Source: Candidatus Thorarchaeota archaeon
Lineage (GTDB): Archaea > Asgardarchaeota > Thorarchaeia > Thorarchaeales > Thorarchaeaceae
NCBI GenBank assembly: GCA_003345555.1
Contig: PRDJ01000033.1
Span: forward strand, 1 to 32,000
Length of the DNA stretch: 32,000 nt
Direction of reading: 5' to 3'
The translations under genes and the position numbers were made by a program. The notes beneath the pieces are model-generated. The model was not told where the DNA came from and did not search any database. It worked only from the letters and a program-made list of their open reading frames with translations. Positions 1 through 18,476 of the stretch are shown in pieces (the first letter of the stretch is position 1; each line of letters opens with the position of its first letter).

Positions 1-552
1 TGCATGCATGTATATCTTGCATGCCCTTTCAAGCAGGACAGCATCATCGAAGGCGTCCCTCAGGGTTCTGTCGCAACACAAAGCTCCGTGATTCGCAATC
101 AGTACGGCACTTCTCATCTCGAGACCTTCAACCACTGCCTTGCCTAACGCAGTAGAACCGGGCTGAGCATACTTGGATACCCGTATCTCACCACCCAATC
201 TTGCAGTTACTTCGTCAATGACGGGGGGGAGGGGCTTGTGCAAGATGGCCATGGCTGTGGCATAGATACTGTGAGTATGTATCACAGCATTGACATCCTT
301 CCTCTGACGGTAGACCTCAAGGTGAGTCGGCGTCTCTGAGCTGGGATTCATCTTACCCTCGACAACGTTTCCCTCCATGTCCAGAATCATGACATCCTCG
401 GGCAGCATTTGGTCGTAGTGCTTCTGGCTGTAAGTTATTGCAACGTGATCATCGACTCTTGCGCTCACGTTGCCTGCAGTTCCAGCAACAAGCCCTTCCT
501 TGAGTAATTCCTTGCAGATACCTTGTATCTCTTTCTTCACTTTCTCGTACAT
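1..552 (-). CDS. Class II aldolase/adducin family protein (L-fuculose-phosphate aldolase-like); 3' end runs off the window
   Basis: Not in the ORF track; translated by hand from ATG at 552, which overlaps the kinase stop (TAATG): MYEKVKKEIQGICKELLKEGLVAGTAGNVSARVDD...PSSETPTHLEVY...VIHTHSIYATA...LIANHGAL...LLERACKIYMHA, open to position 1. It carries the GTAGNVS phosphate loop, PSSE catalytic Glu, and HxH plus NHG Zn-ligand His motifs. Confidence 0.92.
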   Translation of the reverse strand, partial: MYEKVKKEIQGICKELLKEGLVAGTAGNVSARVDDHVAITYSQKHYDQMLPEDVMILDMEGNVVEGKMNPSSETPTHLEVYRQRKDVNAVIHTHSIYATAMAILHKPLPPVIDEVTARLGGEIRVSKYAQPGSTALGKAVVEGLEMRSAVLIANHGALCCDRTLRDAFDDAVLLERACKIYMHA

Positions 553-2060
553 TACTGTTCATCTCGATGACCGTACCAAATCTCCGTCCACTTGGAGTAG
601 CACGACTTGTAGGCATTCGCTCTCTCGTCAGGATCCACAACTGGTTTCCACTGTACCATCGCGTGAGCCGCAGCCTGCAAACTGGGATACCAGCCAGCGC
701 CACGCGCTGCGCAGATTGCCGCCCCAAGGAGGCTACCTTCTGATTGAAGCGTGGTATGCACCGGTGTGTTCAGTACGTTGGCAAGCATTTCTGTCCAAAC
801 TGCACCACGGGTCATACCGCCTATCGCCTTCACCGCCTTCACCTGCGCGAACTCAGCGAGCTGGTCGCAGTTGCCACGTATTGAGTAAGTAATATTTTCC
901 ATAACTGCATGAATCAAACTTGCTGCATTCAGGGAAACAACATTCGGAAGAGCAGGCTGAGGGAAGAAGATTCTCGCTTGAGGCACTTCGGTCATCTTTC
1001 TACAATCCATGATGCTCGGTCCCAAGCCCGCATAGGTCTCATTGCTGCCCGGCGGAATCGAGGCAACAACCTCGGACAGCTTGCTGAATGTCTGGCTGAC
1101 GCACTTCTCCGGATTCTCAGCGCGTTCACAAAGCAGACGGACGGCCCAATCAAGAAGAGCACCAGTAAGCATGGAATTGCTCTCTACGGTCCACTGTCCG
1201 GGAATCATATGGCAGCTCGTCCAGAGCTTCTGATCCGGCACACATATCGCGCAATCCGTAACCAGCATCGAGGGCGCTGTACTGCCTGCTATGACCGTAA
1301 TCTCGTTAACATCCGTCTCGGTCGCAACCAATGCACAATGGGTGTCGGTCCCGCCCTGAGCAACCTTAAGCCCTGCGGGCAGCCCACATTCTCGTTCTGC
1401 TTGTTTGCTGACTTCGCCAACGATGGTTCCAGCTTCGTGTATCTCAGGCAGGATTGACAAGTCTGCTTGAACAGCATCCGCTATGTCAGGACTCCAATCC
1501 CTCGACTTGACATCGAAGAAACCCGTACCACTTGCAGACGAGGGATCTGCAACGAAGGACCCGGAAAGTCGGTAGGTGATCCAGTCATTTATGGGGAGCA
1601 TGTGGGCCACCGTTTGGCGAATCTCAGGCTCTTCTTCTTCGAACCATGCGAGTCTCGATGGAGCAAAGACCAGCGGAGGCCAGCAACCCGTAATCTCGTG
1701 GAATCTCTCCCCTAGAGCATCTTCAATGATGTATTGAGTCATGGCTCCGCGTGCGTCCATGTTAGGACCGCCATAGAGCTCTTGTCCATCCTTGTCAAGA
1801 AAGACCACTCCGTGGCGCTGGCTTGTTGTGGCGACAGCTTCAATCTCCGACTTGGGAATACCTGAGACCTTCAAAGCCTGCCGAATGACAGCACATGTAA
1901 GATTCCAGAATTCCTTGGGGCTGAACTCCTTCGCTATCTCAAGGCTGGCAGGAGTTGTATAACCCCAAGGCTTTCTGCCCGCTCCAAGGACTTCGCCATG
2001 ACGACTCACAATCATACATCTTACGCCGGTCGTCCCGGCGTCAATGGCGGCCACTACCAT
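552..2060 (-). CDS. FGGY-family carbohydrate kinase, autoinducer-2 kinase (LsrK)-like subfamily
   Basis: N-terminal IDAGTTGVR ATPase motif, TSQRHGVV, GGTD, and C-terminal GG...E-G-S-LLGAA. PNMDARG replaces the usual W-x-D-x-R and resembles LsrK ANVDAR. AGGAGG RBS lies 7 nt upstream of the ATG. Confidence 0.9.
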   Translation of the reverse strand: MVVAAIDAGTTGVRCMIVSRHGEVLGAGRKPWGYTTPASLEIAKEFSPKEFWNLTCAVIRQALKVSGIPKSEIEAVATTSQRHGVVFLDKDGQELYGGPNMDARGAMTQYIIEDALGERFHEITGCWPPLVFAPSRLAWFEEEEPEIRQTVAHMLPINDWITYRLSGSFVADPSSASGTGFFDVKSRDWSPDIADAVQADLSILPEIHEAGTIVGEVSKQAERECGLPAGLKVAQGGTDTHCALVATETDVNEITVIAGSTAPSMLVTDCAICVPDQKLWTSCHMIPGQWTVESNSMLTGALLDWAVRLLCERAENPEKCVSQTFSKLSEVVASIPPGSNETYAGLGPSIMDCRKMTEVPQARIFFPQPALPNVVSLNAASLIHAVMENITYSIRGNCDQLAEFAQVKAVKAIGGMTRGAVWTEMLANVLNTPVHTTLQSEGSLLGAAICAARGAGWYPSLQAAAHAMVQWKPVVDPDERANAYKSCYSKWTEIWYGHRDEQ

Positions 2061-3077
2061 CTACTTGCCCCTCCTTTCGAATACCTCGGGGTTCAACACG
2101 TGCAGCGGTCTTTTGCCCCTGACAAAGGCAACGATGTCAGCTGCAATCATTGCTGATTGACGTTCCATAGTCTCTATTGTATTCCCGCCCATGTGTGGAG
2201 TAACAACAACATTGTCAAGACCTAGAAACACATTGTCAGAGTCAACAGGTTCCATCGAGAAAACATCAAGGCCCGCACCTGCAATTGTCGCGGATTTGAG
2301 AGCATCCAGAAGGGCCGCTTCATCAGCGACCATCGCCCTTGCTGTATTGATGAATATGGCTGTCTTCTTCATCTGTGCGAATTGCTTCGCACCTATCATT
2401 CCCTTTGTCTCGGGAGTTGGCGGGCAGTGGATTGTTACGATATCAGAGCGCTTCAGTAGCTCGTCAAGCTTCACTACCTCAGCTCCAACTTGACGAACTC
2501 TTGTGTTGTCCACGTATGGGTCATAAACGAGAAGTCGCAACCCAAAAGCTTGGAGACGTTTTGCGACTTCAAACCCAATCGAACCAAGACCAATGATGCC
2601 AACACTCCGGCCATATAGCTCGAAGCCCGCCAATGTCTTGTACATACGGGCGAAATCCCCGAAGCTATTTACGAAGAAATCGCCTTTCAGAAAACGTTCA
2701 CACGAAACAATCTTGCGGGCAACGCTCAAAATCAGTCCTATCGTATGCTCTGCGACAGCATTCGTGTTCCTGCCCGGGGCACTGATCACAGGAATCCTCT
2801 TGGCAGTCGCAGCCGGGATGGAGATGTTGTTCGGGTCGTTCCTCGCAGACCCGATGAGCTTCAGAGATGTGCTGGCAATCACTTCTTCCTTGACCTCGTC
2901 GCCCTCCACCACAACAACGTCAGCACCAGCCTCTTTGATTGGCTTAGTGAGAGAATCTCCCAAGTAGAGCTTGCCTGTCTCAAGCCAGCTCTGGTGCACA
3001 ACCGTCACACCAGCATCTCTGAGGGTCTTCAGTCCAGACTCGGAAAATGGTGCAGTTATGAGTGCTTTCACGTCCAT
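2061..3077 (-). CDS. D-isomer-specific 2-hydroxyacid dehydrogenase (SerA/GyaR-like, NAD-binding)
   Basis: Rossmann GIIGLGSIG...VYDPY, N-x-x-AVAEH, INTAR (Arg), LDVF-x-x-EP (Glu), TPHMGG (His). No ACT domain. ATG at 3077 follows an in-frame GTG at 3080. Confidence 0.92.
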   Translation of the reverse strand: MDVKALITAPFSESGLKTLRDAGVTVVHQSWLETGKLYLGDSLTKPIKEAGADVVVVEGDEVKEEVIASTSLKLIGSARNDPNNISIPAATAKRIPVISAPGRNTNAVAEHTIGLILSVARKIVSCERFLKGDFFVNSFGDFARMYKTLAGFELYGRSVGIIGLGSIGFEVAKRLQAFGLRLLVYDPYVDNTRVRQVGAEVVKLDELLKRSDIVTIHCPPTPETKGMIGAKQFAQMKKTAIFINTARAMVADEAALLDALKSATIAGAGLDVFSMEPVDSDNVFLGLDNVVVTPHMGGNTIETMERQSAMIAADIVAFVRGKRPLHVLNPEVFERRGK

Positions 3078-3114
3078 CACCGTGACCCGCGTATTGAACC
3101 GGAATGAACGCCGC

Positions 3115-3236: not shown

Positions 3237-3569
3237 CTACAACAGGAGCTTCTGCAACTTCAGCAGATCAGGGACCTCGCCTTTTGTCTTTAGCTTGCCC
3301 GCGGAATACGCCGCCATGGGACTTTCTGTCTTGGCCATTATGCCGAGGAAGACCGTGGAGTCCATTGTCACCTGCAATTCAGATGGTACTACTCCCTCAC
3401 CGACTGCTAGGACTTTTCCATCACCAATTTTCAGATACATGCTTGTATTGATATCAGGAAATACAAACTGGAGCGTCTTGTTGTAGCCCACGAATCTCTT
3501 CTGTATCTTGGGGTCATCGAATCGCTTCGCGATTTCTTTGAGGTGAGCTAGTACCTTCTCTCTAGACAT
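3237..3569 (-). CDS. SCP2 sterol/lipid-binding domain protein
   Basis: About 110 aa from MSREKVL (ATG 3569; the track start at 3677 is probably too long). C-terminal pattern 'LQVTMDSTVFLGIMAKTESPMAAYSAGKLKTKGEVPDLLKLQKLL' is typical of SCP2 (A-x3-GKLK-x-x-G). Confidence 0.85.
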   Translation of the reverse strand: MSREKVLAHLKEIAKRFDDPKIQKRFVGYNKTLQFVFPDINTSMYLKIGDGKVLAVGEGVVPSELQVTMDSTVFLGIMAKTESPMAAYSAGKLKTKGEVPDLLKLQKLLL

Positions 3570-3786
3570 CCAAATACCTTGACCTGAACAGATTACAAAT
3601 GCGGATTTATCCTCTATGTATTTCCCGGCCTGTGGTCTCCCCGCCATGTCAAGCTCCGACCGGAGGCTTCGCTTCATGCGACGGTTGCTCCCTTAGCATG
3701 TCCGCAAAGGCTTAACGGGAAATACGATTGATTGAAGCAGTGATACGCCCAAGTGGTGTATTCCACAACTAGTGGTGCTAGGCAGT

Positions 3787-4494
3787 ATGAGTGATATCTT
3801 TGGCATGATAATGCACGATGCCAGTGAGGGGCAGATGGCAGAACACAAGATCGAACGAGATGATGGTTTTGTAACTGACAGCAATGGCAAGCAATACGTT
3901 GCCCCGATTGAAGAATGGCAGGAATCCGAAAGACTCGCAATTCCAGTTGCCAAGAGCCCTGTCTTAGACATAGGGTGCGGAGCTGGCCGCGTAGGTCAGT
4001 ACTTGATTGTCCACGGATTAGATTGGGTTGGCATAGATGTCTCGCCTGGTGCAATAGAGGCATGCAGACGGAGAGGCCTCGACAGTGTACATCTCATGTC
4101 GGCCGATGAAATCAGACTCAGAAGACGAGACTTCAGAACTGTCATTATGTTTGGCAATAACTTTGGTGTCGTTGGAGGCAAGGATAAGGTCGCAAAGATG
4201 CTGAAGCAATTATACAAGGTAACGACTCGGGATGCAATAATACTGGCAGGCTCAAGGGATCCTAGGGCCACAGATGAAGAGGCACATCTGAAATACCATC
4301 AGTGGAATCAGTCTCGTGGTAGACCCGCGGGACTCGTCAGGCTTAGGATGCACTACAAGGGTTTGACTGGTCAGTGGTTCGAACTATTGTTGAGCAGTCC
4401 TGAAGAGATGAGCGAGGTGGCCGAACGCGCAGGCTGGCACCTTACCAAGACGTTCGGCGAAAGGAAGTACTACGTAGGGCTACTGGAAAAGTAA
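3787..4494 (+). CDS. Class I SAM-dependent methyltransferase
   Basis: Motif I VLDIGCGAGR, post-I GIDVS, motif IV IMFGNNFG. Start at ATG 3787 (MSDIFG...IERDDG) is preferred over the track GTG at 3772. Substrate unknown. Confidence 0.88.
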   Translation: MSDIFGMIMHDASEGQMAEHKIERDDGFVTDSNGKQYVAPIEEWQESERLAIPVAKSPVLDIGCGAGRVGQYLIVHGLDWVGIDVSPGAIEACRRRGLDSVHLMSADEIRLRRRDFRTVIMFGNNFGVVGGKDKVAKMLKQLYKVTTRDAIILAGSRDPRATDEEAHLKYHQWNQSRGRPAGLVRLRMHYKGLTGQWFELLLSSPEEMSEVAERAGWHLTKTFGERKYYVGLLEK

Positions 4495-4555
4495 CAATAA
4501 TCGTGAATCGGGATTCCGAACTTATTTTGCAGCCATTCATAATGCTGAATAGACC

Positions 4556-5461
4556 GTGTCTGTTCTGGAAGAACTAGGCTGGTGGGTTTACTGTTTGAAA
4601 GGATTTGATAAGCTTCATGAAAAGCTGCCCGGCTACCCAGGCAGGAGAATCGCGCTATTGCCGCTCAGGGGATTGGTAGCTTCGACAGTAGCTTTTCTAG
4701 GCCTGATCTTATTGGACATCCTGCCACGCATCTTCAGCAGTGTTGAGCTACTCGTACTAGCTGAACCTTTCATTCCGCTACTTGGTAGCCTCCTGGTCGC
4801 GGCAGTTGGATTGTGGCTCATAGGAAGCCTGTGGAACAAGAGAGATGTGATGAAGGCCAAGTATGGTAGTCTTGCATACCAAAAGATGATATCCAGAGGA
4901 GTTGTGGGCGTGTTCCTTATTCCTTCTCTCGTCTTTCATGCATTCACCTCAATTCGTTCATTGCCTCCTAGCCCTCCAGTTAATGAACTCACGACTCAGT
5001 GGTCACAATCGCTACTGTTTGCCTTCGGGATTACTGGGGATGCTGATCTGCTGCTGCGCATCGGGGTAGCAGCATTCCTATTTGCCTTGGGCGCCCTCAC
5101 TGTACGCAGCGCGCTCACCACATTCGGAATAGACTACATGACCGTCGTATACCTCTATTTTCCAGACGAATCGGAAGTGCAACAGCATGAAATCTATTCA
5201 GTCGTACGTCATCCTGCGTATTTGGGAGCTGTTCTTATGGGCGCCGCAGCATTCGTGTTCAGATGCTCCGTTTACTCTGCTCTGATTTTCATAATCGTAT
5301 ACGGCGTGTTCAGAATCCAGATCGCACGTGAAGAAAGAGAGCTTGTTGAGAGATTCGGTAACTCATACAAGGACTATATGAAGAAAGTTCCTGCGCTTCA
5401 TGTTCGGCTGCATAGCATAAGGGCTTTCGCAAGATTTCTGACATACAGACCTTCTAGATGA
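4556..5461 (+). CDS. Isoprenylcysteine carboxyl methyltransferase (ICMT/PEMT)-family membrane protein
   Basis: C-terminal IYSVVRHPAYLG and EERELVERFGNSYKDYMKKVP motifs; several hydrophobic TM segments upstream. Start codon uncertain (GTG). Confidence 0.85.
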   Translation: MSVLEELGWWVYCLKGFDKLHEKLPGYPGRRIALLPLRGLVASTVAFLGLILLDILPRIFSSVELLVLAEPFIPLLGSLLVAAVGLWLIGSLWNKRDVMKAKYGSLAYQKMISRGVVGVFLIPSLVFHAFTSIRSLPPSPPVNELTTQWSQSLLFAFGITGDADLLLRIGVAAFLFALGALTVRSALTTFGIDYMTVVYLYFPDESEVQQHEIYSVVRHPAYLGAVLMGAAAFVFRCSVYSALIFIIVYGVFRIQIAREERELVERFGNSYKDYMKKVPALHVRLHSIRAFARFLTYRPSR

Positions 5462-5599
5462 CAGCTGCTTGACCCCGTGTTCGGCTCGGACTTCGGCGCC
5501 ACCTTTGTCACTCCATGGCTAAATCGATAATGAGATTCGGAGCGCCACAGGCAATCTATTAGGGAGAGCCTGTAGCGTTACGAAGATAAGGAGACTCCT

Positions 5600-6025
5600 G
5601 TGAAATCCTATGAGCAAAAGGAGGAATTCGTGTTGGCAGTCTCAACAAATACACCAAGGAATTCAACACCTCTTGGCGTCTCGATCCTTGCGCTTCTTGA
5701 TGTCGTAATTGGTATCTTCTCAGTGTGGGTAGGCGTGAATACCGAGTTCATCAGACTAGGTCATCATCTTGTGATGATAGACACCGTGCAGCTTGGCGAC
5801 CTAGTACTTGGGATCGTCCTCATAATAGCGGGATTCGGCCTGTGGAAGATGAAGTACTGGGCTTGGCTGATTAGTGTGCTGTTCATGATCATAGGTCTCG
5901 TCTTGAATGTTGGCGCAGTGTTGATCGACTTCGAACTCATTCATCGCTACATCTTGGCGATTCTGGTCCGCATTATCGTGATTGCGTATCTGTTGCAGCC
6001 AGAAATAAGCAGCAAGTTCAAGTAA
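5600..6025 (+). CDS. Hypothetical membrane protein, about 4 TM helices
   Basis: Four hydrophobic stretches, GLWKMKYWAW loop and charged termini. RBS-like AAGGAG precedes both GTG 5600 and GTG 5630, so the start is ambiguous. Confidence 0.7.
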   Translation: MKSYEQKEEFVLAVSTNTPRNSTPLGVSILALLDVVIGIFSVWVGVNTEFIRLGHHLVMIDTVQLGDLVLGIVLIIAGFGLWKMKYWAWLISVLFMIIGLVLNVGAVLIDFELIHRYILAILVRIIVIAYLLQPEISSKFK

Positions 6026-6040
6026 CTGATTAGATTGGGT

Positions 6041-7504
6041 ATGAGTGTTCTCGGCGGCGAGGACCATTTAGACCCAACTGCCCATTGGGCAGAAAGGGAG
6101 CTTGCGAACATGGGCTTGAGAGCGAAGGTGAGCTATGCTTCAGGAAACTTGGGAGCATCTCTACTCTACAACGCCTTCGCGACATTTGCATTGACCTTCT
6201 ACGTTGACAAGAAATACATCGGACTTGATGGAGTCCTGTACGGGATGGCAATCGCCATATACGGTGTATGGAACGCGATTAACGATCCTCTTTTCGGGGT
6301 CCTCTCAGACAGAACACGTACTAGGTGGGGGAGAAGAAGGCCTTACATATTCATAGGTGCAATCTTCCTCTTCGTGACATACTTGCTGGTCTGGACTCCT
6401 CCGGTGACAGGGCTTCCACTAGCTGAACCATTCAATATCCCGATATTCATCTACTTCCTTCTCACCATAATCGCATTCGACGGGTTCTACACGCTGGTCA
6501 GTGTCCCTTACGTTTCCATGTTTCCGGAGCTCTATGAAAGTCCAAAGGACAGATCACAGGTTCAGCTCTTCAGACAGTTGTTTGCAGCCTTGGGTCTCAT
6601 ACTCGCTTTCACGATGCCAATGATGATTGAAACTCTGTCAAGGACAATGACAGTATACGATGCTTACAAGTACGTGGGCCTAGCCCTTGGCGTGGTGGGA
6701 TCAGTTCCTTTCATAATCTCCGTAATCTGGAACAAGGAAAGAAAGGAACTAAGCCTAGAGACAAATCCTTCACTTGGGCCAACTCTGAAGACCACGTTAG
6801 GGAATAGGACGTTCCTCATATTCGCCGTGGCCTACCTAATGATACAGTATGCCTTTCTGTGGATGCAGAGCATGCTGGAGTTTTTCTCAACTAACATCCT
6901 CGGTATAGGAAAAGGCGACGTGACGATCTTGTTGCTGGCCATGTTCGTCTCAGCGCTGCCATTTCTTGCGGTGTGGGCCGCAGCTTACAGGAAATACGGG
7001 ACTAGGAAATGCTTCATCGCGACCATGTCTGTCTTCGCGATTTCACTCCAGCCGTTTCTGTTTGTATCGGGCCTCACTCAGGTTTTGCCCATAATGTTCG
7101 TTGCTGGCGTTGGCCTCTCAGGATACATGATGCTGCCTGAAGTAATGGTGAGCGAGATTATTGATGAAGACGAGGTCAAGTCAGGGATCAGAAGAGAAGG
7201 AGTATACTTCGGAATGAATGGCTTTCTCGGGAGATTTGGATTCGTACTAAGCGGATTGACAGCCGCGTTCTTCTTTGGACTGACCGGATATCAGGGTGGT
7301 ACTCCGCCGACACCAGAAGTCAGTCTGATATTCAGGCTGGCCATGACGACAATCCCGCTGATGGCCATGGGGCTCGCACTTGTCTGTCTGAAGTACTACC
7401 CGCTTCACGGGGAAAGACTAGATGCAGTAAGAAAAGCAATGGACAAGATGCACATGGAAAAGGCAGAGCGTCTGGAGGCAGCCCCTAAAGAAGAGAAGCT
7501 ATGA
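6041..7504 (+). CDS. MFS transporter, glycoside-pentoside-hexuronide (GPH/MelB-like) family
   Basis: WNAINDPLFGVLSDRTRTRWGRRRPYI signature, D-G-x-Y-T-x-x-x-VPY, C-terminal D-E-D-E-x-x-SG-x-RREG-x-YFG; about 12 TMs. Alternative starts at 6035 (TTG) and 6110 (ATG). Confidence 0.92.
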   Translation: MSVLGGEDHLDPTAHWAERELANMGLRAKVSYASGNLGASLLYNAFATFALTFYVDKKYIGLDGVLYGMAIAIYGVWNAINDPLFGVLSDRTRTRWGRRRPYIFIGAIFLFVTYLLVWTPPVTGLPLAEPFNIPIFIYFLLTIIAFDGFYTLVSVPYVSMFPELYESPKDRSQVQLFRQLFAALGLILAFTMPMMIETLSRTMTVYDAYKYVGLALGVVGSVPFIISVIWNKERKELSLETNPSLGPTLKTTLGNRTFLIFAVAYLMIQYAFLWMQSMLEFFSTNILGIGKGDVTILLLAMFVSALPFLAVWAAAYRKYGTRKCFIATMSVFAISLQPFLFVSGLTQVLPIMFVAGVGLSGYMMLPEVMVSEIIDEDEVKSGIRREGVYFGMNGFLGRFGFVLSGLTAAFFFGLTGYQGGTPPTPEVSLIFRLAMTTIPLMAMGLALVCLKYYPLHGERLDAVRKAMDKMHMEKAERLEAAPKEEKL

Positions 7505-8167
7505 GGATTGTTCCTCAATGCATCTAGGTCCCTCATTCGAGGGGTTGTTCACAAACGAGGATACACTAAAGACCTCCATGTCAATGGATGGATATGAATC
7601 AAGCAATGCCTTCAGTACTGACGAATCAACCTTCTCCTTTGTCAGCCACATATCGTACTCATCGCGCGAAAGAATTACTGGCATTCTGTTGTGAATCTTA
7701 GAAAGCAATTCGTTCGGCACGGTTGTGACAATCGTTGCACTCGCATTCACCTCAGCCGTTGGTGACTCCCAGAGGTCATACAACCCTGCAAATGCAAACG
7801 GCTCCCGCGACTTCAGGCGTACAAAGTAGGGAGTCTTGTTCCCGACCTTGCCCTTCCATTCATAGAATCCATCTGTTGGAATCAGGCATCTTCGATTCTT
7901 GAAAGAGTGGCGGTAGGTTGGCTTGACCTCGATTGTCTCAGCTCGTGCATTGATTGTACTGAAATCCGACGCAGGTTCCTTCGTCCAAAAAGGAATCAGA
8001 CCCCAACGCATCTCCACGAGCTTGCGTACATCATTCTGAATAATCACTGCGATTTCTTGTTCCGGCGCGACATTGTAACGCGGCTTCAGCTCTGCCATGA
8101 CCTGCCCTATTCCGAACTTGGCGACTAATATGCCAGCAGGGCTGAATAGACCAAACCGACCACACAT
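7499..8167 (-). CDS. SOS response-associated peptidase (SRAP; HMCES/YedK family) abasic-site DNA-protein crosslinker
   Basis: N-terminal MCGRF (catalytic Cys2), RYNVAP, INARAET, RRCLIP-x-DGFYEW, IHNRMPVIL, and C-terminal VNNPSNEGP. Confidence 0.95.
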   Translation of the reverse strand: MCGRFGLFSPAGILVAKFGIGQVMAELKPRYNVAPEQEIAVIIQNDVRKLVEMRWGLIPFWTKEPASDFSTINARAETIEVKPTYRHSFKNRRCLIPTDGFYEWKGKVGNKTPYFVRLKSREPFAFAGLYDLWESPTAEVNASATIVTTVPNELLSKIHNRMPVILSRDEYDMWLTKEKVDSSVLKALLDSYPSIDMEVFSVSSFVNNPSNEGPRCIEEQSS

Positions 8168-8265: not shown

Positions 8266-8316
8266 GACTCTCAGGGTGTCGACCTCGACACAACCGTAGC
8301 TCGGAGATCTCTATTG

Positions 8317-11300
8317 ATGGTCACTAAGACGACCAAGAAAAAAGCGCCCAAGGCAAGACCCAAGATGACGGAAAAAGCGCCTTCGAAGATAACTGATGTC
8401 TTGGTCATTGGTGCAGGCATGGCAGGCATCAACGCTTCGCTTGATCTCGCTAAAGGTGGACACCATGTTCACTTGGTAGAAAAGAATGTGAATATTGGCG
8501 GCAACTATGTCGCCGTCTACAAGATATTCCCTATGCTGGAGTGCTCTGCTTGTGTCATGACGCCCCTGACTTCTTACGTAGGAAAGCATCCGAACATCAC
8601 AACCTATGCCTTGTCCACAGTGGAGAAAGTATCGGGGACCAAGGGCAATTTCAGCGTAACTATTCGAAAACAGGCTCGTTACGTTGATGAAAAGAAGTGC
8701 ACAGGATGTGGATTGTGCACGCAGAACTGTCCGGTGGAGGTTCCAAACGAGTATGACTTTGGTCTGAGCTTGCGAAAGGCGATCTACTTTAACTTCAGGC
8801 AGCAGGTCCCGCTCATTGCACGCATAGACAAGAAGTCTTGCATCGGTTGTGGCACCTGCGCGGGAGTCTGCCCTCAGGACTGCATCAGATATGATGATGA
8901 AGACAAACTCTATACCTTCAAGGTTGGGTCAATCATTGTTGCTACCGGATTTCAAGAATACAAGCCATATGACTATGGCGAGTACGGCTATGGTGTGTAT
9001 CCGAATGTTGTCACGAGTCTAGAATATGACCGAATGAGCCACCCCACCGGGCCAACTGACTCCCATATGGTGCGTCCGTCGGATGGCAGGGAGCCGGAGA
9101 AGGTCCTCTTCGTTAATTGTGTGGGAAGCAGGGATGTCAGAGAGAACATCAGCGGATATAGTCAGCACTGCAACAGGGTCTGCTGTTCGTTTGGTCTCAA
9201 GCTCGCACAAGTCACGCGAATGCACTATCCCGCAGAGCATTGTGAGATCATATACACCTACATGGACATGCGAACAGCCGGAAAGGCACTCGAGGAGTTC
9301 CTGTGGGACAGTCAAAAGAATCAAGGTATCAAATTCATTCGAGGCAGAGTTGCGGAGATTTCTGAAGACTTCGATACACACGACCTGTTCGTGAAACTCG
9401 AGGACACAGAAACCGGTAAGATCATCGAACTGAAAGGTATCTCACTTGTCGTCCTCAATGCGAGCTTTAGACCGAACGACGGAGTCGAGGAACTGGCGAA
9501 GCTCCTCAAGATTGACATCAGCGACACTGGGTGGCTGAAGGAGAAGCATCCGAATACAGCAGCGCTTGAAACCGACAAGCCGGGCATCTTCATTGCGGGC
9601 TGTGATCATGGCCCGAGAGACGGTACTGACACCGTCAACGAAGGAAAAGGTGCCGCCATGGCTGCCCATTCGATTCTGCCAATTCCAGAAGTCGCACCAA
9701 TTGAGGTAATACCCCCGCTTGAAGAGGGGGTTGAGCCCAGAGTTGGCGTATTCATCTGCCACTGTGGTGGTATCATAGGCAATATGATTAGTTCTCCGGG
9801 TCTTGCCGAATGGTCGCGGGATCTTCCCAATGTTGTCTTTGCGACCGACTACATATTCATGTGTAGTGATCCGGGGCAGCAGAAGATTGTGGACGCGATT
9901 GAGGAACACAAGCTGAATCGCGTTGTTGTAGGTTCGTGCTCTCCGCTTCAGCATCAGGAGACTTTCAGAAACGCACTTGAGAGAGCAGGTCTGTCAAGGT
10001 ACTACTTTGTCGGTCCCGTGGGCCTGAGGGAGCAGCTGGCCTTGGTAAATGCAAGAGCCACAGCAGAGGAGCGTCAGGAAAAGGCGCAGGATATGATTCG
10101 AAGTGCCGTGGCCAAAGCCGTGAATAATGAAGCCGTTCCGATGAAATCTGTTGAGGTTGTTCGCACGGCCATGGTTGTTGGTGGAGGAGTATCTGGCATG
10201 ACAGCTGCCCTCGACATCGCTAGGAAGGGCTTCAACGTCGTCCTTGTTGAGAAGACGGACAAGCTCGGCGGACGACTTAACGAGTTGCATCATATCTTCC
10301 CCAAGATGGAGTCGGCGAAGGATATTGTTGAGGACTTGAAGACGCGTGTCGGTCAGGAGAAGAGGATCCAGGTACTCTTGAACTCGAGACCGATTGGTCG
10401 TGAGGGCACATATGGGAACTACGACGTGATACTCGAGAACATCGCGACCCATGAAAAGAAGACCGTCAAGGTTGGCTCGATGCTTCTTACTGTGGGAACT
10501 GACACTTATGAACCCAAGAATGGTGAGTACGGATTCGGAGTCGTTCCTGCAGTCATCACGACACTCGATTTGGAGAAGAAGCTCAGAAACGGGGAACTCA
10601 AGACCCCCCCAAAGAACCCCGTCTTCATCCACTGCGTGGGTTCAAGGCAGACGCCGGGCGAGGGAAATAGATACTGCTCACGAGTTTGCTGCTCGGCTCT
10701 AGTGGCTATGCAACACGAGCTCAAAGAGATGTTTCCGGATGTGAGAATCTTCTCTGCGTTCAAGGAACACATCCGTCCATTCGCGAGCGGGATGGAAGAG
10801 ATGTGGCGCGAAAACAGGCAGAATGGAATTACATACATCCGATGGGTACGCGAGAGACCACTGACGGTCGAAAAGGCTGGGGATTCAGATGAGGCCATAA
10901 TCACTGTCTATGACACTCTTTCACAACAGACACTGAAGATAAGGTCAGACTTGGTCGTTCTCGCAGTGGGGCTTGAAGCTCCACATGATGTAGCCGACCT
11001 AGTGAAGGCCATGGGCATTAACCGCGGTCAAGACGGATTCCTCCGAGAAATGCACATGAAGTTCAGACCGGTCGAGACGACAGTGCCCGGAGTATTCCTC
11101 GGCACGACTTACGCCAAGAACGTATCCGACTCAATCAACCAAGCAAGGGCCGCAGCAAGTGAGGCATGTATTCCGCTCAACCTGGGGACGGTACAAATCG
11201 AGCTGCTTACGGCAGAAGTGGACGAAGACCTATGCGTGGGTTGTGACCTGTGCCACTTCTCTGAAATCTGTCCGTATGATGCCATCACTATGATGGAGGT

Positions 11301-11451
11301 CTCGCCGGGAGTAAAGAAGAGCGTGACAGACGACGTGAAGTGCCATGGATGCGGCGCATGTGCCGCGATTTGCCCCACGGGTGCTCGAGACTTACGCTGG
11401 TGGCGTGAGAAGAGCTACATGGAAGAGATTGAGGCAATGCTCGCCAGCTAG
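8317..11451 (+). CDS. hdrA: Large heterodisulfide reductase subunit A-like flavoprotein with two FAD modules and no MvhD domain
   Basis: Two GxGxxG FAD motifs (IGAGMAG, VGGGVSG). Inserted 2x[4Fe-4S] ferredoxin (CTGCGLCTQNCP, CIGCGTCAGVCP) in module 1. CVGSR...C-x-x-x-CC cluster motif in both modules. HdrA N-terminal domain (PRVGVFICHCGG...FMCS...GSCSP) located internally from about 9736. C-terminal ferredoxin (CVGCDLCHFSEICP, CHGCGACAAICP). Confidence 0.92.
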   Translation: MVTKTTKKKAPKARPKMTEKAPSKITDVLVIGAGMAGINASLDLAKGGHHVHLVEKNVNIGGNYVAVYKIFPMLECSACVMTPLTSYVGKHPNITTYALSTVEKVSGTKGNFSVTIRKQARYVDEKKCTGCGLCTQNCPVEVPNEYDFGLSLRKAIYFNFRQQVPLIARIDKKSCIGCGTCAGVCPQDCIRYDDEDKLYTFKVGSIIVATGFQEYKPYDYGEYGYGVYPNVVTSLEYDRMSHPTGPTDSHMVRPSDGREPEKVLFVNCVGSRDVRENISGYSQHCNRVCCSFGLKLAQVTRMHYPAEHCEIIYTYMDMRTAGKALEEFLWDSQKNQGIKFIRGRVAEISEDFDTHDLFVKLEDTETGKIIELKGISLVVLNASFRPNDGVEELAKLLKIDISDTGWLKEKHPNTAALETDKPGIFIAGCDHGPRDGTDTVNEGKGAAMAAHSILPIPEVAPIEVIPPLEEGVEPRVGVFICHCGGIIGNMISSPGLAEWSRDLPNVVFATDYIFMCSDPGQQKIVDAIEEHKLNRVVVGSCSPLQHQETFRNALERAGLSRYYFVGPVGLREQLALVNARATAEERQEKAQDMIRSAVAKAVNNEAVPMKSVEVVRTAMVVGGGVSGMTAALDIARKGFNVVLVEKTDKLGGRLNELHHIFPKMESAKDIVEDLKTRVGQEKRIQVLLNSRPIGREGTYGNYDVILENIATHEKKTVKVGSMLLTVGTDTYEPKNGEYGFGVVPAVITTLDLEKKLRNGELKTPPKNPVFIHCVGSRQTPGEGNRYCSRVCCSALVAMQHELKEMFPDVRIFSAFKEHIRPFASGMEEMWRENRQNGITYIRWVRERPLTVEKAGDSDEAIITVYDTLSQQTLKIRSDLVVLAVGLEAPHDVADLVKAMGINRGQDGFLREMHMKFRPVETTVPGVFLGTTYAKNVSDSINQARAAASEACIPLNLGTVQIELLTAEVDEDLCVGCDLCHFSEICPYDAITMMEVSPGVKKSVTDDVKCHGCGACAAICPTGARDLRWWREKSYMEEIEAMLAS

Positions 11452-11537
11452 ACCTGCCAGAAGCATCAGAGTCTCTGACAAATGTGCAAGACCAATGAAG
11501 CTGTGGCTGCCATCAATCAGCTCGGAGATGGGTTTCC

Positions 11538-11563
11538 AGTGTGTTCCGAGTCCCGGACACACT
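11538..11563. terminator. Possible hairpin between convergent genes
   Basis: AGTGTGT(T)CCG-AGTCC-CGGACACACT: 10-bp stem with one bulge, touching the stop codon of the small minus-strand gene. Function is not demonstrated. Confidence 0.25.
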
Positions 11564-11744
11564 AGGACTTTCTAAAGCGATAGAGGGCTACGAGGTTCAG
11601 CACAATTGACATCCCAATCAGGACCCCGATTAGGAAGTCTATGATGCCATCTCCTATGACAAACCGATCCATTAACACTGCAATTGAAAGGCATGTGCAC
11701 CCGACAGGCGCCAACCATCTATCCTTCAACAGAACCACGCGCAA
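11562..11744 (-). CDS. Small two-TM membrane protein (about 60 aa)
   Basis: Two clean hydrophobic helices (LAPVGCTCLSIAVLM; IIDFLIGVLIGMSIVLNLVALY) and a basic tail RFRKS. It fills an otherwise empty gap, with an AT-rich GAAGTTATTTAAC about 30 nt upstream. Confidence 0.6.
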   Translation of the reverse strand: MRVVLLKDRWLAPVGCTCLSIAVLMDRFVIGDGIIDFLIGVLIGMSIVLNLVALYRFRKS

Positions 11745-12017
11745 AGCACCATACTCCAGAATGCGCCTAATGTTAAATAACTTCTCGACAAAGCAATCCG
11801 ATGACTAGCAGGCAAAGTGTTGCCAGTGCTGGCTGAAGCCCGCAATTCATAATGGATATAGGACGACCATCCACATTACAGGATACCCAAGAACAGCTCT
11901 CGGATCCGCGGGTAAAACTCCGGAAAGGTTCCCTCTGTTCACAGGTCGCATGAGCAGACTGATATGATAAGATGAATTCCGTGGATAGATTGAAACGCTC
12001 TGTAGGGGGTTTGTGAG

Positions 12018-12590
12018 ATGGTATCGGCTGATAGCATGCTGGCAGGCTGGATGGTTTTGAATGATTTGCTTGGTGACCTGAAGAGCCGAGGCGTGTTCAT
12101 ACCAGACCTCACCTATGCAGACCTGCGAAATAGCAAGATGGTCATTGAATATCTTCGGGCATTTGAGCGTGAGATTGCCTCTATCGATCAGCAAGACGTG
12201 GAGCTGAGGTCCGAAATGGAGACAAGGATGCTCCGTCTGAAGGAAACCTTGATGATTTGGGCCGAGCAAAATGGCGGTGAGGGAGTTCGGCGTACATGGG
12301 AAAGGCGCTTCAACGATGCAATCCAAGGGAAGGGTCAAAAGATTCCCCCTGAGCCTAAGACCCGGATTTCGGATCTCCCAAGAGAGAAGGACGTTGCTTT
12401 CTTTCGGATAAGGTTACCAGATGAGATTCCAGTGGAGATTGTCTCAGAACTGGCAGAGGATTGCCGTGTCCATATATCACTGGACGGTGACCGCCATCTA
12501 CAAGTAAGTGGCAAGAAGGAATGCGTCCGTGATGCGATGAAGCGGCTCGGTGAGATATTCTACGGGGAAGACCGGACAGTATCGAAGTAG
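12018..12590 (+). CDS. DUF2096-like conserved archaeal protein
   Basis: Recognised by eye from the pattern W-x-VL-x-DLL-x-DL-x-x-RG...DLR-x-x-K-x-x-I...W-x-x-R...LPR...F-x-RI-x-LP...E-x-x-E...V-x-G-x-KE-x-V-x-x-A-x-K. GGGGGT RBS upstream. Family assignment needs an HMM check. Confidence 0.7.
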   Translation: MVSADSMLAGWMVLNDLLGDLKSRGVFIPDLTYADLRNSKMVIEYLRAFEREIASIDQQDVELRSEMETRMLRLKETLMIWAEQNGGEGVRRTWERRFNDAIQGKGQKIPPEPKTRISDLPREKDVAFFRIRLPDEIPVEIVSELAEDCRVHISLDGDRHLQVSGKKECVRDAMKRLGEIFYGEDRTVSK

Positions 12591-12604
12591 AACAATAGTC
12601 CAGT

Positions 12605-13480
12605 CTACAATCCGAGAATGTCGGCTATCGGGTCGAGTGGCACCCTGTTCAGTCTGAGCCCGAGAGCGTCTACATCAATACCCATTGCGGCACCGAGCAC
12701 CTGTGTTACGAACAATGCAGGCAGCTCAAACGATTCCCCCTTGTCGCCCTTCATGCCAATGGCTTGGATATCGAACTGCGTGTGGCATGCTGGGCAGTTT
12801 GTCACAATGCAGTTAGCGCCAGCGTCCTTCGCTGAGATCATCTTCTCCTTTAGAATCCGTGATGCAACACTCTCACTCGCTATAAGCAATGGCGAACCAC
12901 AGCATCTGAGTTTCAAGCCCCAAGGTAGGCTCTTAGCCCCGGTCAGTTCGATTAGCTCATCGACTTTGCGTGGAAGCTCAGGGTCATCAAAACCAGCCAC
13001 TTTCGAAGGCCGGAGCAAATGACAGCCCGGGTGGAATGCTACAGATAGCCCATTCAGTGGTCGGACAATCTTACCCTTGATCTCATCCTTCAAATCGTAG
13101 AGGACCTCAACGAAATGTCGAATTGTAGCCTTGCCCGTGAATTGCAGTCCCTGAGAAGATAGGGCCTTGTTTGTAGCCTTTCGAGCAGCATCATTATTGT
13201 GAAGAACATGAGAGCAGTCCTTGAGAGAGCCGAAGCAGCCGTTGCACGGTGTGACTATATTGTGGCCGCGCTTTTCAGCAAGAGCGATGTTCCTTCCTGA
13301 AATTGCGAGCCAGCTGGGTTCATCGATTGACTTTAGAACAACCGTGCCGCAGCACGAAGCACCTTCAAAGTCCAAGAGCTCGACGTCGAGCTCTTTTGCG
13401 ACAGCACGCATAGATGCTTCATAGTAGTTGAATCTTGAGGGAATTGCGCAGCCCAGGAATACCTCATACGTTTGGGTCAT
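12605..13480 (-). CDS. hdrB: Heterodisulfide reductase subunit B (CCG-domain protein), divergent copy
   Basis: All ten Cys plus the His of the two CCG domains are present: FLGC, SCCG, PCNGC, PGCH, RCCG, NCPAC. ATG 13480 overlaps the hdrC stop (TGATG). Confidence 0.93.
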   Translation of the reverse strand: MTQTYEVFLGCAIPSRFNYYEASMRAVAKELDVELLDFEGASCCGTVVLKSIDEPSWLAISGRNIALAEKRGHNIVTPCNGCFGSLKDCSHVLHNNDAARKATNKALSSQGLQFTGKATIRHFVEVLYDLKDEIKGKIVRPLNGLSVAFHPGCHLLRPSKVAGFDDPELPRKVDELIELTGAKSLPWGLKLRCCGSPLLIASESVASRILKEKMISAKDAGANCIVTNCPACHTQFDIQAIGMKGDKGESFELPALFVTQVLGAAMGIDVDALGLRLNRVPLDPIADILGL

Positions 13481-13998
13481 CACTCACCCTCCTGCAATCT
13501 CATCAGACCCGTCTTGCCAAGCACCTTGCGGGTCTCGGCCACATCAAGATGCGGGACAGGAGGAAGAGCCAAGTCGTCGCGCTCCCAATCTGTCGGTTCG
13601 TAAAGCTTTCCATTATCGTACAGGGCCTTTCGTGATGTCACATAGCCCGGTGGTGTTATGCCCTTGCGAAATGCCATGTTCTTGAGGCCAAAGATTATGT
13701 CAGTTATCTCGATTCCCTGAGGACAACGCTGCTGGCATTGATAACACGTAGTGCAGAGCCAGACCATGTCCGTGTCAAGGACTTCCCTGAAACCGAACAA
13801 GAGCATCCTCATCAACTCGTGGACTTGGATGTTCACTTTGTCAGAGACAGGGCACCCTGCGCTGCACTTTGCGCACTGAAAACACGCGGTCAGGTCCTGC
13901 CCACCAATCAGCTTTGAGACCTCCTTCGTGAATTCAGCATCAAGTGCCTCGAACTTCTTGCCTTCGAAGGACTTCAGCTGACCCCAGTTCTCTGCCAT
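13480..13998 (-). CDS. hdrC: Heterodisulfide reductase subunit C (2x[4Fe-4S])
   Basis: CFQCAKCSAGCP and WLCTTCYQCQQRCPQ motifs; lies between hdrA and hdrB. Confidence 0.93.
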   Translation of the reverse strand: MAENWGQLKSFEGKKFEALDAEFTKEVSKLIGGQDLTACFQCAKCSAGCPVSDKVNIQVHELMRMLLFGFREVLDTDMVWLCTTCYQCQQRCPQGIEITDIIFGLKNMAFRKGITPPGYVTSRKALYDNGKLYEPTDWERDDLALPPVPHLDVAETRKVLGKTGLMRLQEGE

Positions 13999-14002
13999 TG
14001 AT

Positions 14003-17000: not shown

Positions 17001-17467
17001 TTCTCGATGTCGATAGTCGCAATGTTGGGTACAGCCTGTGGGAATGGGATGTAGGCTGCTTTTCTCATCTTTAGGCCAAGGTCGTACTCGTTCGGAACCT
17101 CGATTGGACACACTCTCTGGCAATCGCCACAGCCAGTACACTTGTTCGAATCCACACGGCGTGTATGCTTCAGGACCTTCACTGTGAAGTCGCCCTGATT
17201 ACCTGATACCTCTGTGACCTCAGAATAGGCCAGAATCGTGATATTGGGATTTCGTGAGCAATCGACCATCCATGGCCCCATGATGCACATCGAACAATCT
17301 AGGGTCGGGAACGTCTTGTCGAGCTGAGCCATGTGTCCACCGATGGATGGCTGCCTCTCGACCATGTACACCCTAACGCCCATTCCGGCTAGGTCTAATG
17401 CAGCACGGATACCAGCGATTCCCGCGCCTATGATAACTACAGGTCTTGTTGAGGTCTCTGCCATCAT
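14003..17467 (-). CDS. hdrA: Large heterodisulfide reductase subunit A with two FAD modules fused to a C-terminal MvhD ([2Fe-2S]) domain
   Basis: Module 1 is canonical (IGAGIAG, GGHMAQLDKTFPTLDCSMC, inserted ferredoxin, CVGSRD...CSRICC, GPKDIPDSVAQ). Internal HdrA N-terminal domain (RIGVFVCSCG...YSCS...ASCTP). Second FAD module (IGAGVAG), C-terminal ferredoxin (CVGCGTCEINC, CAGCGKCAAGCP). MvhD from about 14405 (CNWCSYAGAD, RVMCTGR, GCHTGDCHY). Confidence 0.95.
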   Translation of the reverse strand: MMAETSTRPVVIIGAGIAGIRAALDLAGMGVRVYMVERQPSIGGHMAQLDKTFPTLDCSMCIMGPWMVDCSRNPNITILAYSEVTEVSGNQGDFTVKVLKHTRRVDSNKCTGCGDCQRVCPIEVPNEYDLGLKMRKAAYIPFPQAVPNIATIDIENCIQCMTCANGCKAQAIDFERPDETVEINAGSIIVATGYRLLDASTVPELGYGRYPNVVTSLEYERMVSASGPTGGVIMRPSDGREPHRIAFVQCVGSRDVNHCPYCSRICCTYATKEAIITKEHMPEVHIDILYNDMRAFGKGFEEFLVRGEKEYGINYVKGLPSEIIEDRDSRDLLVRHSDMKGREILQDRYDLVILCPAMVHNENQDLFQKLGVQIDSYGYLEGMAGRVESVQTGVPGIHMCGTVNGPKDIPDSVAQGSAAAALAALDIVIPKAPELEAATQTITELATGEPRIGVFVCSCGVNIAGTVDVAEVTRYAGSLPNVVHAQNLLYSCSSDAQVVIKDAIKEHKLNRVVVASCTPRTHEPLFRATTEEAGLNKYLFEMANIREHCSWIHQGAKDEATAKAMDLVRMAVAKSRLLEPEEEAATKVEPAVLVIGAGVAGMSAAELIADKGFKTYLVEREDKVGGLLSQLHTVNFDFTPALDIVGQHERMVKGNSNIELMLNSEVTDAKGSIGDFEVTVMTSKKQKRELKVGVVVVATGAVQLEEKGLYGLQKFPDVTTELELNQRLAQDDAFQDGETFAVIHCAGSRQDESLEGSRTWCSGICCTVALEHTLELLEKYPNSRVFHLYRDLRVSYTAEDRYREARKKGVVFIRFDKDSPPEVKKGKNRPLRVEVTDQILGAKLGLDVDHVVLATAMVPRETNKQISELFKVPLNMSGFFMEAHPKLRPVDFQTDGVYVAGTATAPKSIDESIAQGRGAAARALVPLVTGVRKAEAIVSVVDPEVCVGCGTCEINCAYNAIEVVPGQGGHDYAVSNPVLCAGCGKCAAGCPTGAITMKHFTDDQILSQIRAALEDMPANQSRILTIVCNWCSYAGADNAGVSRFQQPTNVRDIRVMCTGRISVTHILEAFRLGADMVWISGCHTGDCHYVDGNITFERRFAIAKKILEKAGLETERLQFTHISASEGSIWADTVRKLSELADKLGPSPLRPRRK

Positions 17468-17509
17468 TTGTCCCTTTAGGGGTGATATGTAGCGGCCTCA
17501 TGGTTGGAC

Positions 17510-17525
17510 GATAAAACGTTTGTTC
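17510..17525 (-). promoter_or_regulatory. Putative BRE-TATA promoter of hdrA(mvhD)-hdrC-hdrB
   Basis: Minus strand reads GAACAAACGTTTTATC about 45 nt upstream of ATG 17467; purine-rich AAAGGGA just before the start. Confidence 0.45.
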
Positions 17526-17540
17526 TAGCGGAGATTCTTT

Positions 17541-18440: not shown

Positions 18441-18476
18441 AGCACGTAGACCTCGGTTTTACCAATGAAGCGGTCC

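Follow-up and report, generated by a model that had tools for sequence, protein, structure and literature searches.

A 32-kb stretch of DNA, the first 32 kb of contig C33 (PRDJ01000033.1) of a Candidatus Thorarchaeota archaeon (genome G000; 2.28 Mb in 82 contigs, 93% complete) and hereafter the window, opens with three co-directional minus-strand open reading frames (ORFs; positions 1-3077) for a D-2-hydroxyacid dehydrogenase-family protein (DH), an FGGY kinase and a class II aldolase. This triad belongs to an operon of five to seven genes: SCP2, DH, kinase, aldolase, aldehyde:ferredoxin oxidoreductase (AOR), a second SCP2 and an AEC-type permease. Found in many lineages but uncharacterised, the module is a variant of kinase plus class II aldolase catabolism, distinguished by an obligate dehydrogenase resembling phosphoglycerate dehydrogenase (PGDH) and by ferredoxin-linked aldehyde oxidation. 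We hold with moderate confidence that its predicted activities make up a phosphorylate-oxidise-cleave-oxidise route for a polyol or deoxy-sugar ending in -CHOH-CHOH-CHOH-CH2OH. The kinase would phosphorylate the primary hydroxyl of the terminal diol, and DH would oxidise the carbinol adjoining the CH2-O-phosphate to give a ketose-1-phosphate. The Zn aldolase would split this into dihydroxyacetone phosphate (DHAP) and an aldehyde, which AOR would turn into a carboxylate while reducing ferredoxin; the permease may export the resulting acid. An earlier interpretation made from the letters of the window alone (the sequence-only reading) had supposed that no described pathway matches the module, and we agree.

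The triad is joined without spacing. The DH stop codon directly abuts the kinase ATG ('AAG TAG ATG GTA'), and kinase stop and aldolase start overlap as TAATG ('CAG TAA TGT'), which confirms the junctions, and a single operon in an archaeon (Thorarchaeota), as previously described. The three gene families had likewise been named correctly, their Pfam matches all lying far above cut-off, while the SCP2 gene on the same strand, 159 nt upstream of the DH gene, had been overlooked and AOR had lain out of view. A 271-kb public contig carries an identical kinase protein; its full-length aldolase of 211 aa is followed, after a 12 bp gap, by a 591-aa AOR (AFOR_N/AFOR_C), a convergent second SCP2 and a Mem_trans (AEC-family) permease. 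Since contig C57 of G000 starts with this same AOR-SCP2-permease set, the operon is split only by an assembly gap. The sequence-only reading had pointed past the left edge as the place to look for an LsrG-like isomerase or an LsrB-like binding protein; no such gene is found there, and AOR, SCP2 and permease stand in that position instead.

The arrangement is strongly conserved. With the kinase as probe, and counting loci with at least three genes on each side of it, we distinguish Thor-type loci (kinase at least 55% identical; 26 loci) and distant loci (kinase less than 55% identical; 18 loci). DH and aldolase flank the kinase in 26/26 Thor-type and 16/18 distant loci, and this recurrence indicates that the DH-kinase-aldolase arrangement is not due to chance. 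AOR accompanies them in 22 and SCP2 in 24 of the Thor-type loci, against six and five, respectively, of the distant ones. The module occurs in about 80 of 201 sampled genomes (by E-value tiers), and roughly every second genome sampled from the window's own family carries the triad. Within the Asgard archaea the triad is present in Thor, Freya, Jord, Baldr, Heimdall/Hod and other families, and in Loki as a DH-aldolase fusion; among bacteria, several of them anaerobes, it is found in Chloroflexota, Bacillota, a deltaproteobacterial metagenome-assembled genome and others. The order SCP2-DH-kinase-aldolase-AOR is shared by Thor, the family f12 and one Chloroflexota genome, and Heimdall/Hod have AOR-SCP2-aldolase-kinase-DH. 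SCP2 thus adjoins the module in differing gene orders in Heimdall/Hod, f12 and one Chloroflexota locus, and AOR adjoins the triad in Thor, f12, Heimdall/Hod, Chloroflexota L084 and Bacillota L085, L141, L145 and L146. We interpret the recurrence of AOR and SCP2 in shuffled orders as good evidence that the five genes work together.

The kinase exceeds the Pfam cut-offs for both of its domains (FGGY_N 160.9 bits, FGGY_C 64.5 bits) and has the invariant residues D7, R82, N100, D102, R104, D239 and G414-G415 (alignment A1). Judged by its two domains and by the catalytic and ATP-binding residues, it is a genuine FGGY carbohydrate kinase. At the family level it resembles the autoinducer-2 (AI-2) kinase LsrK more than xylulo- or glycerol kinases, as the sequence-only reading had noticed: the NCBIfam LsrK model (NF008187) scores 280 bits, XylB 242 and GlpK 129, and the top match in the PDB is LsrK 5YA0 with 223 bits, compared to 122 for glycerol kinase. 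These scores fall short of the cut-offs of the LsrK (528) and XylB (380) models, and identity to E. coli LsrK is 30%. E. coli LsrK itself matches a GlpK-like paralogue on contig C1 of G000 with 197 bits and the window kinase with 192. In a maximum-likelihood tree (all trees are quick IQ-TREE runs with SH-aLRT support) the genuine LsrKs, from E. coli and two Bacillota and 54% identical between these, form a clade with 100% support and a long stem that excludes the window kinase. The latter falls in two trees into a separate clade of 23-29 kinases of shared gene context, whose Asgard members are monophyletic (99%). This clade groups with LsrK, XylB and GlpK and not with FucK/RhaB, while the branching between it and the LsrK clade has no clear support. 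The two Bacillota-type genomes behind the LsrK reference clade (L142 in G314 and L143 in G273; 5.2-5.6 Mb) possess complete lsr loci, lsrR-lsrK-...-lsrF with a divergent lsrACDB, whose proteins are 39-60% identical to their E. coli counterparts.

Subfamily models and a phylogeny including LsrK had been put forward as a check of an AI-2 pathway; the equivalog cut-off is not reached and the kinase lies outside the LsrK clade. We therefore reject its orthology to LsrK on grounds of score, tree and genomic context. By its sequence it is a member of an uncharacterised FGGY clade near LsrK, XylB and GlpK, and the module does not qualify as an Lsr (AI-2) system. Searches of the literature on LsrK or fuculose in Asgard archaea, on DUF1152 and on PDB 7X0R yielded nothing useful, and in the LsrK structure paper no substrate-contact residues were found for comparison.

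DH matches the Pfam domains 2-Hacid_dh_C (200 bits) and 2-Hacid_dh (63 bits), and its top PDB match is the short archaeal-type PGDH of P. horikoshii (1WWK, 215 bits). Its catalytic Arg/Glu/His align with R240, E269 and H292 of SerA, the Arg not being universal in the clade. The 'YD' that follows a Rossmann glycine motif points to NAD rather than NADP. In the region of Arg60/Arg62 the phosphate-binding 'LRSRT' of SerA is replaced by a conserved acidic 'V-E-x-D' in the DH clade ('V-E-G-D-E' in the window protein), and clade-specific arginines occur in two substrate-loop motifs, 'CR(N/D)xPxN' and 'PGRN'. An assignment as SerA or glyoxylate reductase was rejected because both equivalog cut-offs are missed (PGDH, TIGR01327, 260 bits against 454; glyoxylate reductase 238 against 455) and the phosphate-binding arginines are lost. 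DH is best described as a PGDH-like member of the D-isomer-specific 2-hydroxyacid dehydrogenase superfamily with a remodelled substrate site, predicted to be of the NAD type. DH and aldolase are fused into a protein of about 560 aa in Loki, Prometheo, Hod and Hermod genomes, where all 120 clusters among the matches listed are fusions.

The aldolase (Pfam Aldolase_II, 192 bits) keeps the Zn ligands E73, H92, H94 and H155 and the phosphate-site residues N29 and S71 of E. coli FucA in an alignment with the latter. Tyr113 of FucA, which contacts the aldehyde oxygen, is changed to Asp or Glu in nearly all members of the aldolase clade, in the motif 'PP(I/V/L)(I/V/L)DE'. A same-genus homologue (62% identical) matches S. 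pneumoniae FucA with 151 bits, the 5-deoxyribulose-1-phosphate aldolase DrdA (6BTD; PMC6079011) with 141.5 and E. coli FucA with 102; both S. pneumoniae FucA and DrdA retain the Tyr that the aldolase clade has lost. The full-length same-genus aldolase stays below the cut-offs of the best models named FucA (183 against 264 and 123 against 400).

AOR was assessed from a same-genus homologue (AFOR_C 366 bits, AFOR_N 245 bits), to which the copy on C57 is 72% identical. It scores 371 bits against P. furiosus 1AOR, 286 against FOR and 205 against WOR5, and we assign it as a predicted tungsten aldehyde:ferredoxin oxidoreductase of the AOR type as opposed to the FOR or WOR5 types, GAPOR not having been among the compared references. 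The P. furiosus AOR has a broad substrate range. The window SCP2 (Pfam 37.4 bits, cut-off 21.3) is 95% identical to a 110-aa same-genus SCP2 over 3569..3267 and weakly similar to the mammalian non-specific lipid-transfer protein (E 0.0016); its family membership predicts a lipid-carrier fold and implies a hydrophobic ligand. At least 20 Thor loci have an AEC permease downstream of AOR and on the same strand as the operon, and this carboxylate-type permease suggests that an acid is exported. At one same-genus locus (L021:11326-13138, G152) AOR is split into two overlapping ORFs of 216 and 402 aa, by a frameshift, pseudogenisation or an assembly error, whereas in other Thor loci it is a single ORF of about 592 aa. 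G000 has about ten AOR-family paralogues, four FGGY kinases (contigs C1, C33, C58 and C64) and three SCP2 paralogues (C33, C57 and C5).

The sequence-only reading had offered a polyol oxidise-phosphorylate-cleave route as one of two options. It comes close to what we favour, except that the evidence speaks for the order kinase, DH, aldolase. Three independent lines make this latter order the most likely one as far as sequence comparison can tell. GlpK, XylB and LsrK phosphorylate the primary hydroxyl of a terminal vicinal diol and FucK/RhaB phosphorylate beside a ketone, so the position of the kinase clade among the former argues for phosphorylation as the initial step. PGDH oxidises the carbon adjoining a CH2-O-phosphate, and as the nearest relative of DH it suggests that the latter would act on a phosphorylated polyol. 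The DH-aldolase fusion implies that these two steps are consecutive. An aldehyde product is indicated by the regular presence of AOR beside the triad or, in its stead, of an iron-dependent alcohol dehydrogenase (Fe-ADH) of the lactaldehyde-reductase type (L082, L140). Since these Fe-ADH operons are already equipped for the aldehyde and still keep DH, DH probably acts before cleavage. A polyol-type substrate is suggested by ABC binding proteins in two bacterial triad operons (L140, L141), which are closest to 3L49 and to 4WT7 (177-210 bits, against 58-73 for ribose-binding proteins); 4WT7 was crystallised with the acyclic polyol allitol (PMC10318746). Homologues of the aldose-ketose isomerases FucI, RhaA, AraA and XylA were not found in G000, and this also fits a polyol or redox route.

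Several observations weigh against the proposed polyol route. D-2-hydroxyacid dehydrogenases normally use 2-hydroxy-carboxylates and not polyol phosphates, and DH is without the phosphate-binding arginines of SerA. The aldolase lacks Tyr113 of FucA and DrdA, so that an epimerase, decarboxylase or isomerase reaction is possible, and the Joint Genome Institute (JGI) pipeline names the fused forms 'L-ribulose-5-phosphate 4-epimerase'. A lipid-carrier fold such as that of SCP2 would have no evident role with a small hydrophilic substrate. The Thor loci are without an ABC binding protein, and the hint at a polyol comes from bacteria. The nucleoside-type, hopanoid and housekeeping contexts of the triad in different lineages moreover mean that the substrate may differ among carriers.

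It is unlikely, though by no means far-fetched, that the same chemistry serves to salvage a by-product of S-adenosylmethionine (SAM), with a 5-deoxy-pentose-type compound (5-deoxyribose, 5-deoxyribitol, methylthioribose or a 5'-deoxyadenosyl-derived adduct) ending as DHAP and acetaldehyde or a substituted acetaldehyde. The module would then be a kinase/DH variant of the DHAP shunt, in place of its MtnK/MtnA-type kinase and isomerase. The aldolase is nearly as close to DrdA as to any FucA, and in the Bacillota loci L082 and L085 the triad stands beside a Bmp/PnrA nucleoside-type binding protein, a TRZ/ATZ amidohydrolase resembling 5'-deoxyadenosine deaminase and DUF1152; the deaminase match, however, is under the cut-off (338 bits against 522). 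In clusters of four Chloroflexota the triad is accompanied by the gene for HpnH, a radical-SAM enzyme, and by a nucleosidase/phosphorylase-like gene. Salvage of an internal metabolite would predict triads without a transporter among housekeeping genes, as seen in Freya, Jord and Baldr (in the former two with CDC48, GMP synthase, FmdE and M20 peptidase, which give no functional hint), and it would agree with the presence of the module in most Asgard lineages. In B. subtilis the putative counterpart, the DH/FGGY pair yoaDC of the yoaDCB unit, is S-box (SAM) regulated (PMC2743287), but Rfam at gathering thresholds detected no riboswitch in 19 bacterial triad loci, the only matches being a tRNA and a group II intron in L145. 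There is also no step converting the aldose 5-deoxyribose into a kinase substrate, DH is without a role in the known shunt, and genes of the purine nucleoside phosphorylase family and IF-2B (MtnA-like) in G000 could supply the aldolase without the kinase; the single IF-2B gene lies on another contig and not beside the aldolase. A 5-substituted 5-deoxy-pentose or pentitol from SAM chemistry could nevertheless be one thread linking the lineage contexts. We assign a rather low probability to a conventional ketose route, in which a 6-deoxyhexulose, pentulose or hexulose receives a phosphate at C1 before it is cleaved, AOR turns the resulting lactaldehyde, glycolaldehyde or glyceraldehyde into the 2-hydroxyacid, and DH acts last to give pyruvate, glyoxylate or hydroxypyruvate. 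Every family would have its textbook role, given that D-2-hydroxyacid dehydrogenases use glycerate, glyoxylate and lactate, the aldolase is FucA-like and AOR lies directly downstream; the DH-aldolase fusion, too, resembles the aldolase/aldehyde-dehydrogenase fusions of rhamnose catabolism. This conflicts with the failure to find an aldose-ketose isomerase in G000 and with the distance of the kinase clade from the 1-kinases FucK and RhaB. L-lactate from L-fucose or L-rhamnose would not be usable by a D-specific enzyme, and thermodynamics disfavours the oxidation of these acids with NAD. The carboxylate-binding region of DH is remodelled and the catalytic Arg lost in some members, the Fe-ADH operons would form no acid yet retain DH, and the carboxylate-type permease after AOR suggests that the acid leaves the cell.

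The headline claim of the sequence-only reading, a variant AI-2 route, has become very improbable. The kinase would phosphorylate 4,5-dihydroxy-2,3-pentanedione (DPD), and phospho-DPD would be isomerised, reduced by DH to a 5-deoxy-pentulose-1-phosphate and split by the aldolase into DHAP and acetaldehyde, enabling the archaeon to use up a signal made by bacteria. LsrK is the top-scoring characterised relative of the kinase, an alpha-diketone could suit a DH with a remodelled carboxylate site, and AOR or the alcohol dehydrogenase would remove the acetaldehyde. Some bacterial triad operons further contain an LsrR-like SorC regulator (28-30% identity) and an LsrACD-like CUT2 ABC transporter (27-35%). 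The kinase scores and trees given above speak against this route, including the equally good fit of E. coli LsrK to the GlpK-like paralogue. In tblastn searches of G000 with E. coli proteins, LsrB, LsrC, LsrD, LsrG and LsrR gave no match at E<=1e-3; LuxS was not found in G000 either, and the sole LsrF match is weak (23%) and falls on a DeoC-family gene that lies some 15 kb away from the kinase gene. The binding proteins of the bacterial operons resemble the polyol binder and match LsrB weakly (26% identity, E 5e-6), and neither SCP2 nor a spread over most Asgard lineages would be expected for scavenging a bacterial signal. Entry of phospho-DPD into the methylerythritol phosphate (MEP) pathway as 1-deoxy-D-xylulose 5-phosphate (DXP), considered because ispG stands beside the triad in Thermoflexus, was rejected by hand-worked stereochemistry, as the C4 configuration of (S)-DPD is opposite to that of 1-deoxy-D-xylulose. 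A similarly slight chance is left to a lipid substrate, with the module clipping ribose-derived polyol side chains (the terminal tetrol or 5-deoxy-ribityl) off bacteriohopanetetrol, ribosylhopane or similar. SCP2 would hold the lipid, kinase, DH and aldolase would remove C33-C35 as DHAP, and AOR would convert the leftover C32 aldehyde to C32 hopanoic acid. In four Chloroflexota genomes (L101, L098, L091 and L106, including Thermoflexus hugenholtzii) the triad does lie on the same strand within a hopanoid cluster of hpnH, hpnG-like, hpnA, shc, hpnC/D/E and ispG genes, in which HpnH, HpnA and squalene-hopene cyclase (SHC) are bona fide and the HpnD-type presqualene diphosphate synthase is sub-threshold. 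SCP2 and AOR accompany the triad in at least four lineages, and one Thor genome has two acyl-CoA synthetase genes ahead of the operon. The triad, however, also occurs in genomes without HpnH and beside sugar- or polyol-type ABC transporters. HpnH is missing in G000; of five further bacterial carriers, four lack it (G201, G203, G204 and G508), and in the fifth (G509) it does not adjoin the triad. A general link to hopanoids is therefore not supported. Matches to the SHC domain in G000 are weak fragments of 22-30 bits.

The positions of the operon genes in G000 are compiled in Table 1. Other genes of the window lie outside the operon. At 3772-5461 and 6035-7504, divergent from it, are a SAM-dependent methyltransferase, a PEMT/ICMT-family membrane methyltransferase and an MFS_2 (GPH-type) sugar:cation symporter, the last of which is absent at the same-genus locus L021. 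Two heterodisulfide-reductase (Hdr)-like sets extend over 8314-20029. The first comprises a plus-strand 1045-aa HdrA-like gene and, on the minus strand, HdrB-like (CCG) and HdrC-like genes and a 1154-aa HdrA-MvhD (FlpD) fusion. The DeoC/LacD-family class I aldolase mentioned above (17541-18440) is located between it and the second HdrB/HdrC pair (18489-20029).

Table 1. Genes and a putative promoter element of the operon in G000; positions refer to the window unless contig C57 is named
Feature	Position	Strand	Remarks
SCP2-family small protein	3237..3569	-	about 110 aa from Met37 of a 146-aa ORF (3677..3237); first gene of the cluster
TATA-like TTTTAA	3117..3122	-	candidate archaeal promoter element, 40-45 nt upstream of the DH ATG; role proposed from reading the sequence
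D-2-hydroxyacid dehydrogenase-family protein (DH)	2061..3077	-	338 aa; ATG at 3077, in-frame GTG at 3080; Pfam 2-Hacid_dh/2-Hacid_dh_C
FGGY kinase	552..2060	-	502 aa; Pfam FGGY_N/FGGY_C
Class II (Zn) aldolase, FucA/DrdA-like	1..552	-	first 184 of 211 aa, the rest cut off by the contig end; Pfam Aldolase_II
AOR	contig C57 4-1572	+	continuation of the operon outside the window
Second SCP2	contig C57 1569-1916	-	convergent with AOR
AEC-type permease (Mem_trans)	contig C57 2099-3025	+	

The surroundings of the module vary among related loci. In the Thor genus g15 (L024, G164) two tandem AMP-binding (acyl-CoA-synthetase-like) genes at 4176-7792 stand directly upstream of SCP2-DH-kinase-aldolase-AOR, and a second class II aldolase paralogue, 49% identical, lies downstream at 13549-14307. 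In the Thor genus g5 (L025, L030) a four-subunit sulfhydrogenase-like [NiFe] hydrogenase (Fer4_22; FAD/NAD; Oxidored_q6; NiFeSe large subunit) occupies 3600-7730, immediately ahead of the operon and in the same orientation, and it could re-oxidise the reduced cofactors made by the operon. In three of the four hopanoid-cluster loci and in L083 the gene after the triad encodes a conserved protein of about 121 aa, which in L101 matches Pfam HMG-CoA_red_N/CGDB. The tRNA gene and group II intron (domains D1-D4) of L145 are found at 11762-12262, just past the AOR of the bacterial triad operon.

Among metabolic operons of Asgard archaea that have no assigned function, the module ranks with the more widely conserved. 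It ties carbohydrate-like carbon to ferredoxin reduction via a tungsten AOR, a link that matters for models of fermentation and syntrophy in Asgard archaea. Should the proposed order be right, the D-2-hydroxyacid dehydrogenase fold would gain a new role, namely polyol-phosphate oxidation, and class II aldolases a new type of active site, with Asp or Glu in place of Tyr113. Hopanoids of C32 type dominate in sediments, and to our knowledge Asgard archaea make no hopanoids; a lipid substrate, if true, would provide an enzymatic source of C32 hopanoids and give Asgard archaea a means of feeding on the membrane lipids of bacteria. In annotation pipelines the genes of the module go by the names 'autoinducer-2 kinase', 'phosphoglycerate dehydrogenase' and 'L-ribulose-5-phosphate 4-epimerase', and a survey of quorum-sensing genes in metagenomes reports AI-2 genes in Asgard archaea (bioRxiv 10.1101/2024.11.15.623595). 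Such AI-2 gene counts are likely inflated, because the kinase, on the present evidence, is not an Lsr component.

Among known systems, the Lsr system of E. coli and Salmonella shares with the module an FGGY kinase with the N-x-D-x-R motif, DHAP among its end products and, in some bacterial versions of the module, a SorC regulator and a CUT2 transporter. It differs by LsrG, LsrF, LsrB and LsrR, none of which the module has, and by a kinase of a separate clade with 30% identity. The LsrF thiolase moreover yields acetyl-CoA, whereas the Zn aldolase of the module is predicted to release an aldehyde and is joined by DH, AOR and SCP2. The DHAP shunt (DrdK-DrdI-DrdA; MtnK/MtnP-MtnA-Ald2; PMC6079011) is likewise a three-gene module in which a class II aldolase yields DHAP and a small aldehyde. 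The similarity of the aldolase to DrdA (141.5 bits) and neighbouring genes of the 5'-deoxynucleoside type in some Bacillota add to this resemblance. Here, however, the kinase is of the FGGY type and not MtnK-like, a dehydrogenase takes the place of the MtnA-like isomerase, and DrdA keeps its Tyr.

The pathways for L-fucose and L-rhamnose (FucI-FucK-FucA-FucO; RhaA-RhaB-RhaD) also combine an FGGY kinase with a class II Zn aldolase that produces DHAP and an aldehyde, which is then oxidised or reduced, and the aldolase of the module keeps their Zn ligands and Glu73. In contrast to these pathways the module is without an isomerase, its kinase is outside the FucK/RhaB clade, Tyr113 is replaced by Asp or Glu, and a PGDH-like dehydrogenase is obligate and in Lokiarchaeia fused to the aldolase. 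With SerA and 1WWK, this dehydrogenase shares the Arg/Glu/His set and an NAD-type Rossmann motif with Asp, but it stays below the equivalog cut-off, is without an ACT domain, is acidic in the Arg60/Arg62 region and has new conserved arginines and insertions. The predicted logic of phosphorylation followed by oxidation parallels that of GlpK and GlpD and of EryA and EryB in Brucella, where an FGGY kinase acts on the terminal diol of a polyol and a dehydrogenase then oxidises beside the phosphate ester. GlpD and EryB are of the flavoprotein type, whereas DH is of the D-2-hydroxyacid type, and the product in the module would be cleaved by an aldolase rather than isomerised.

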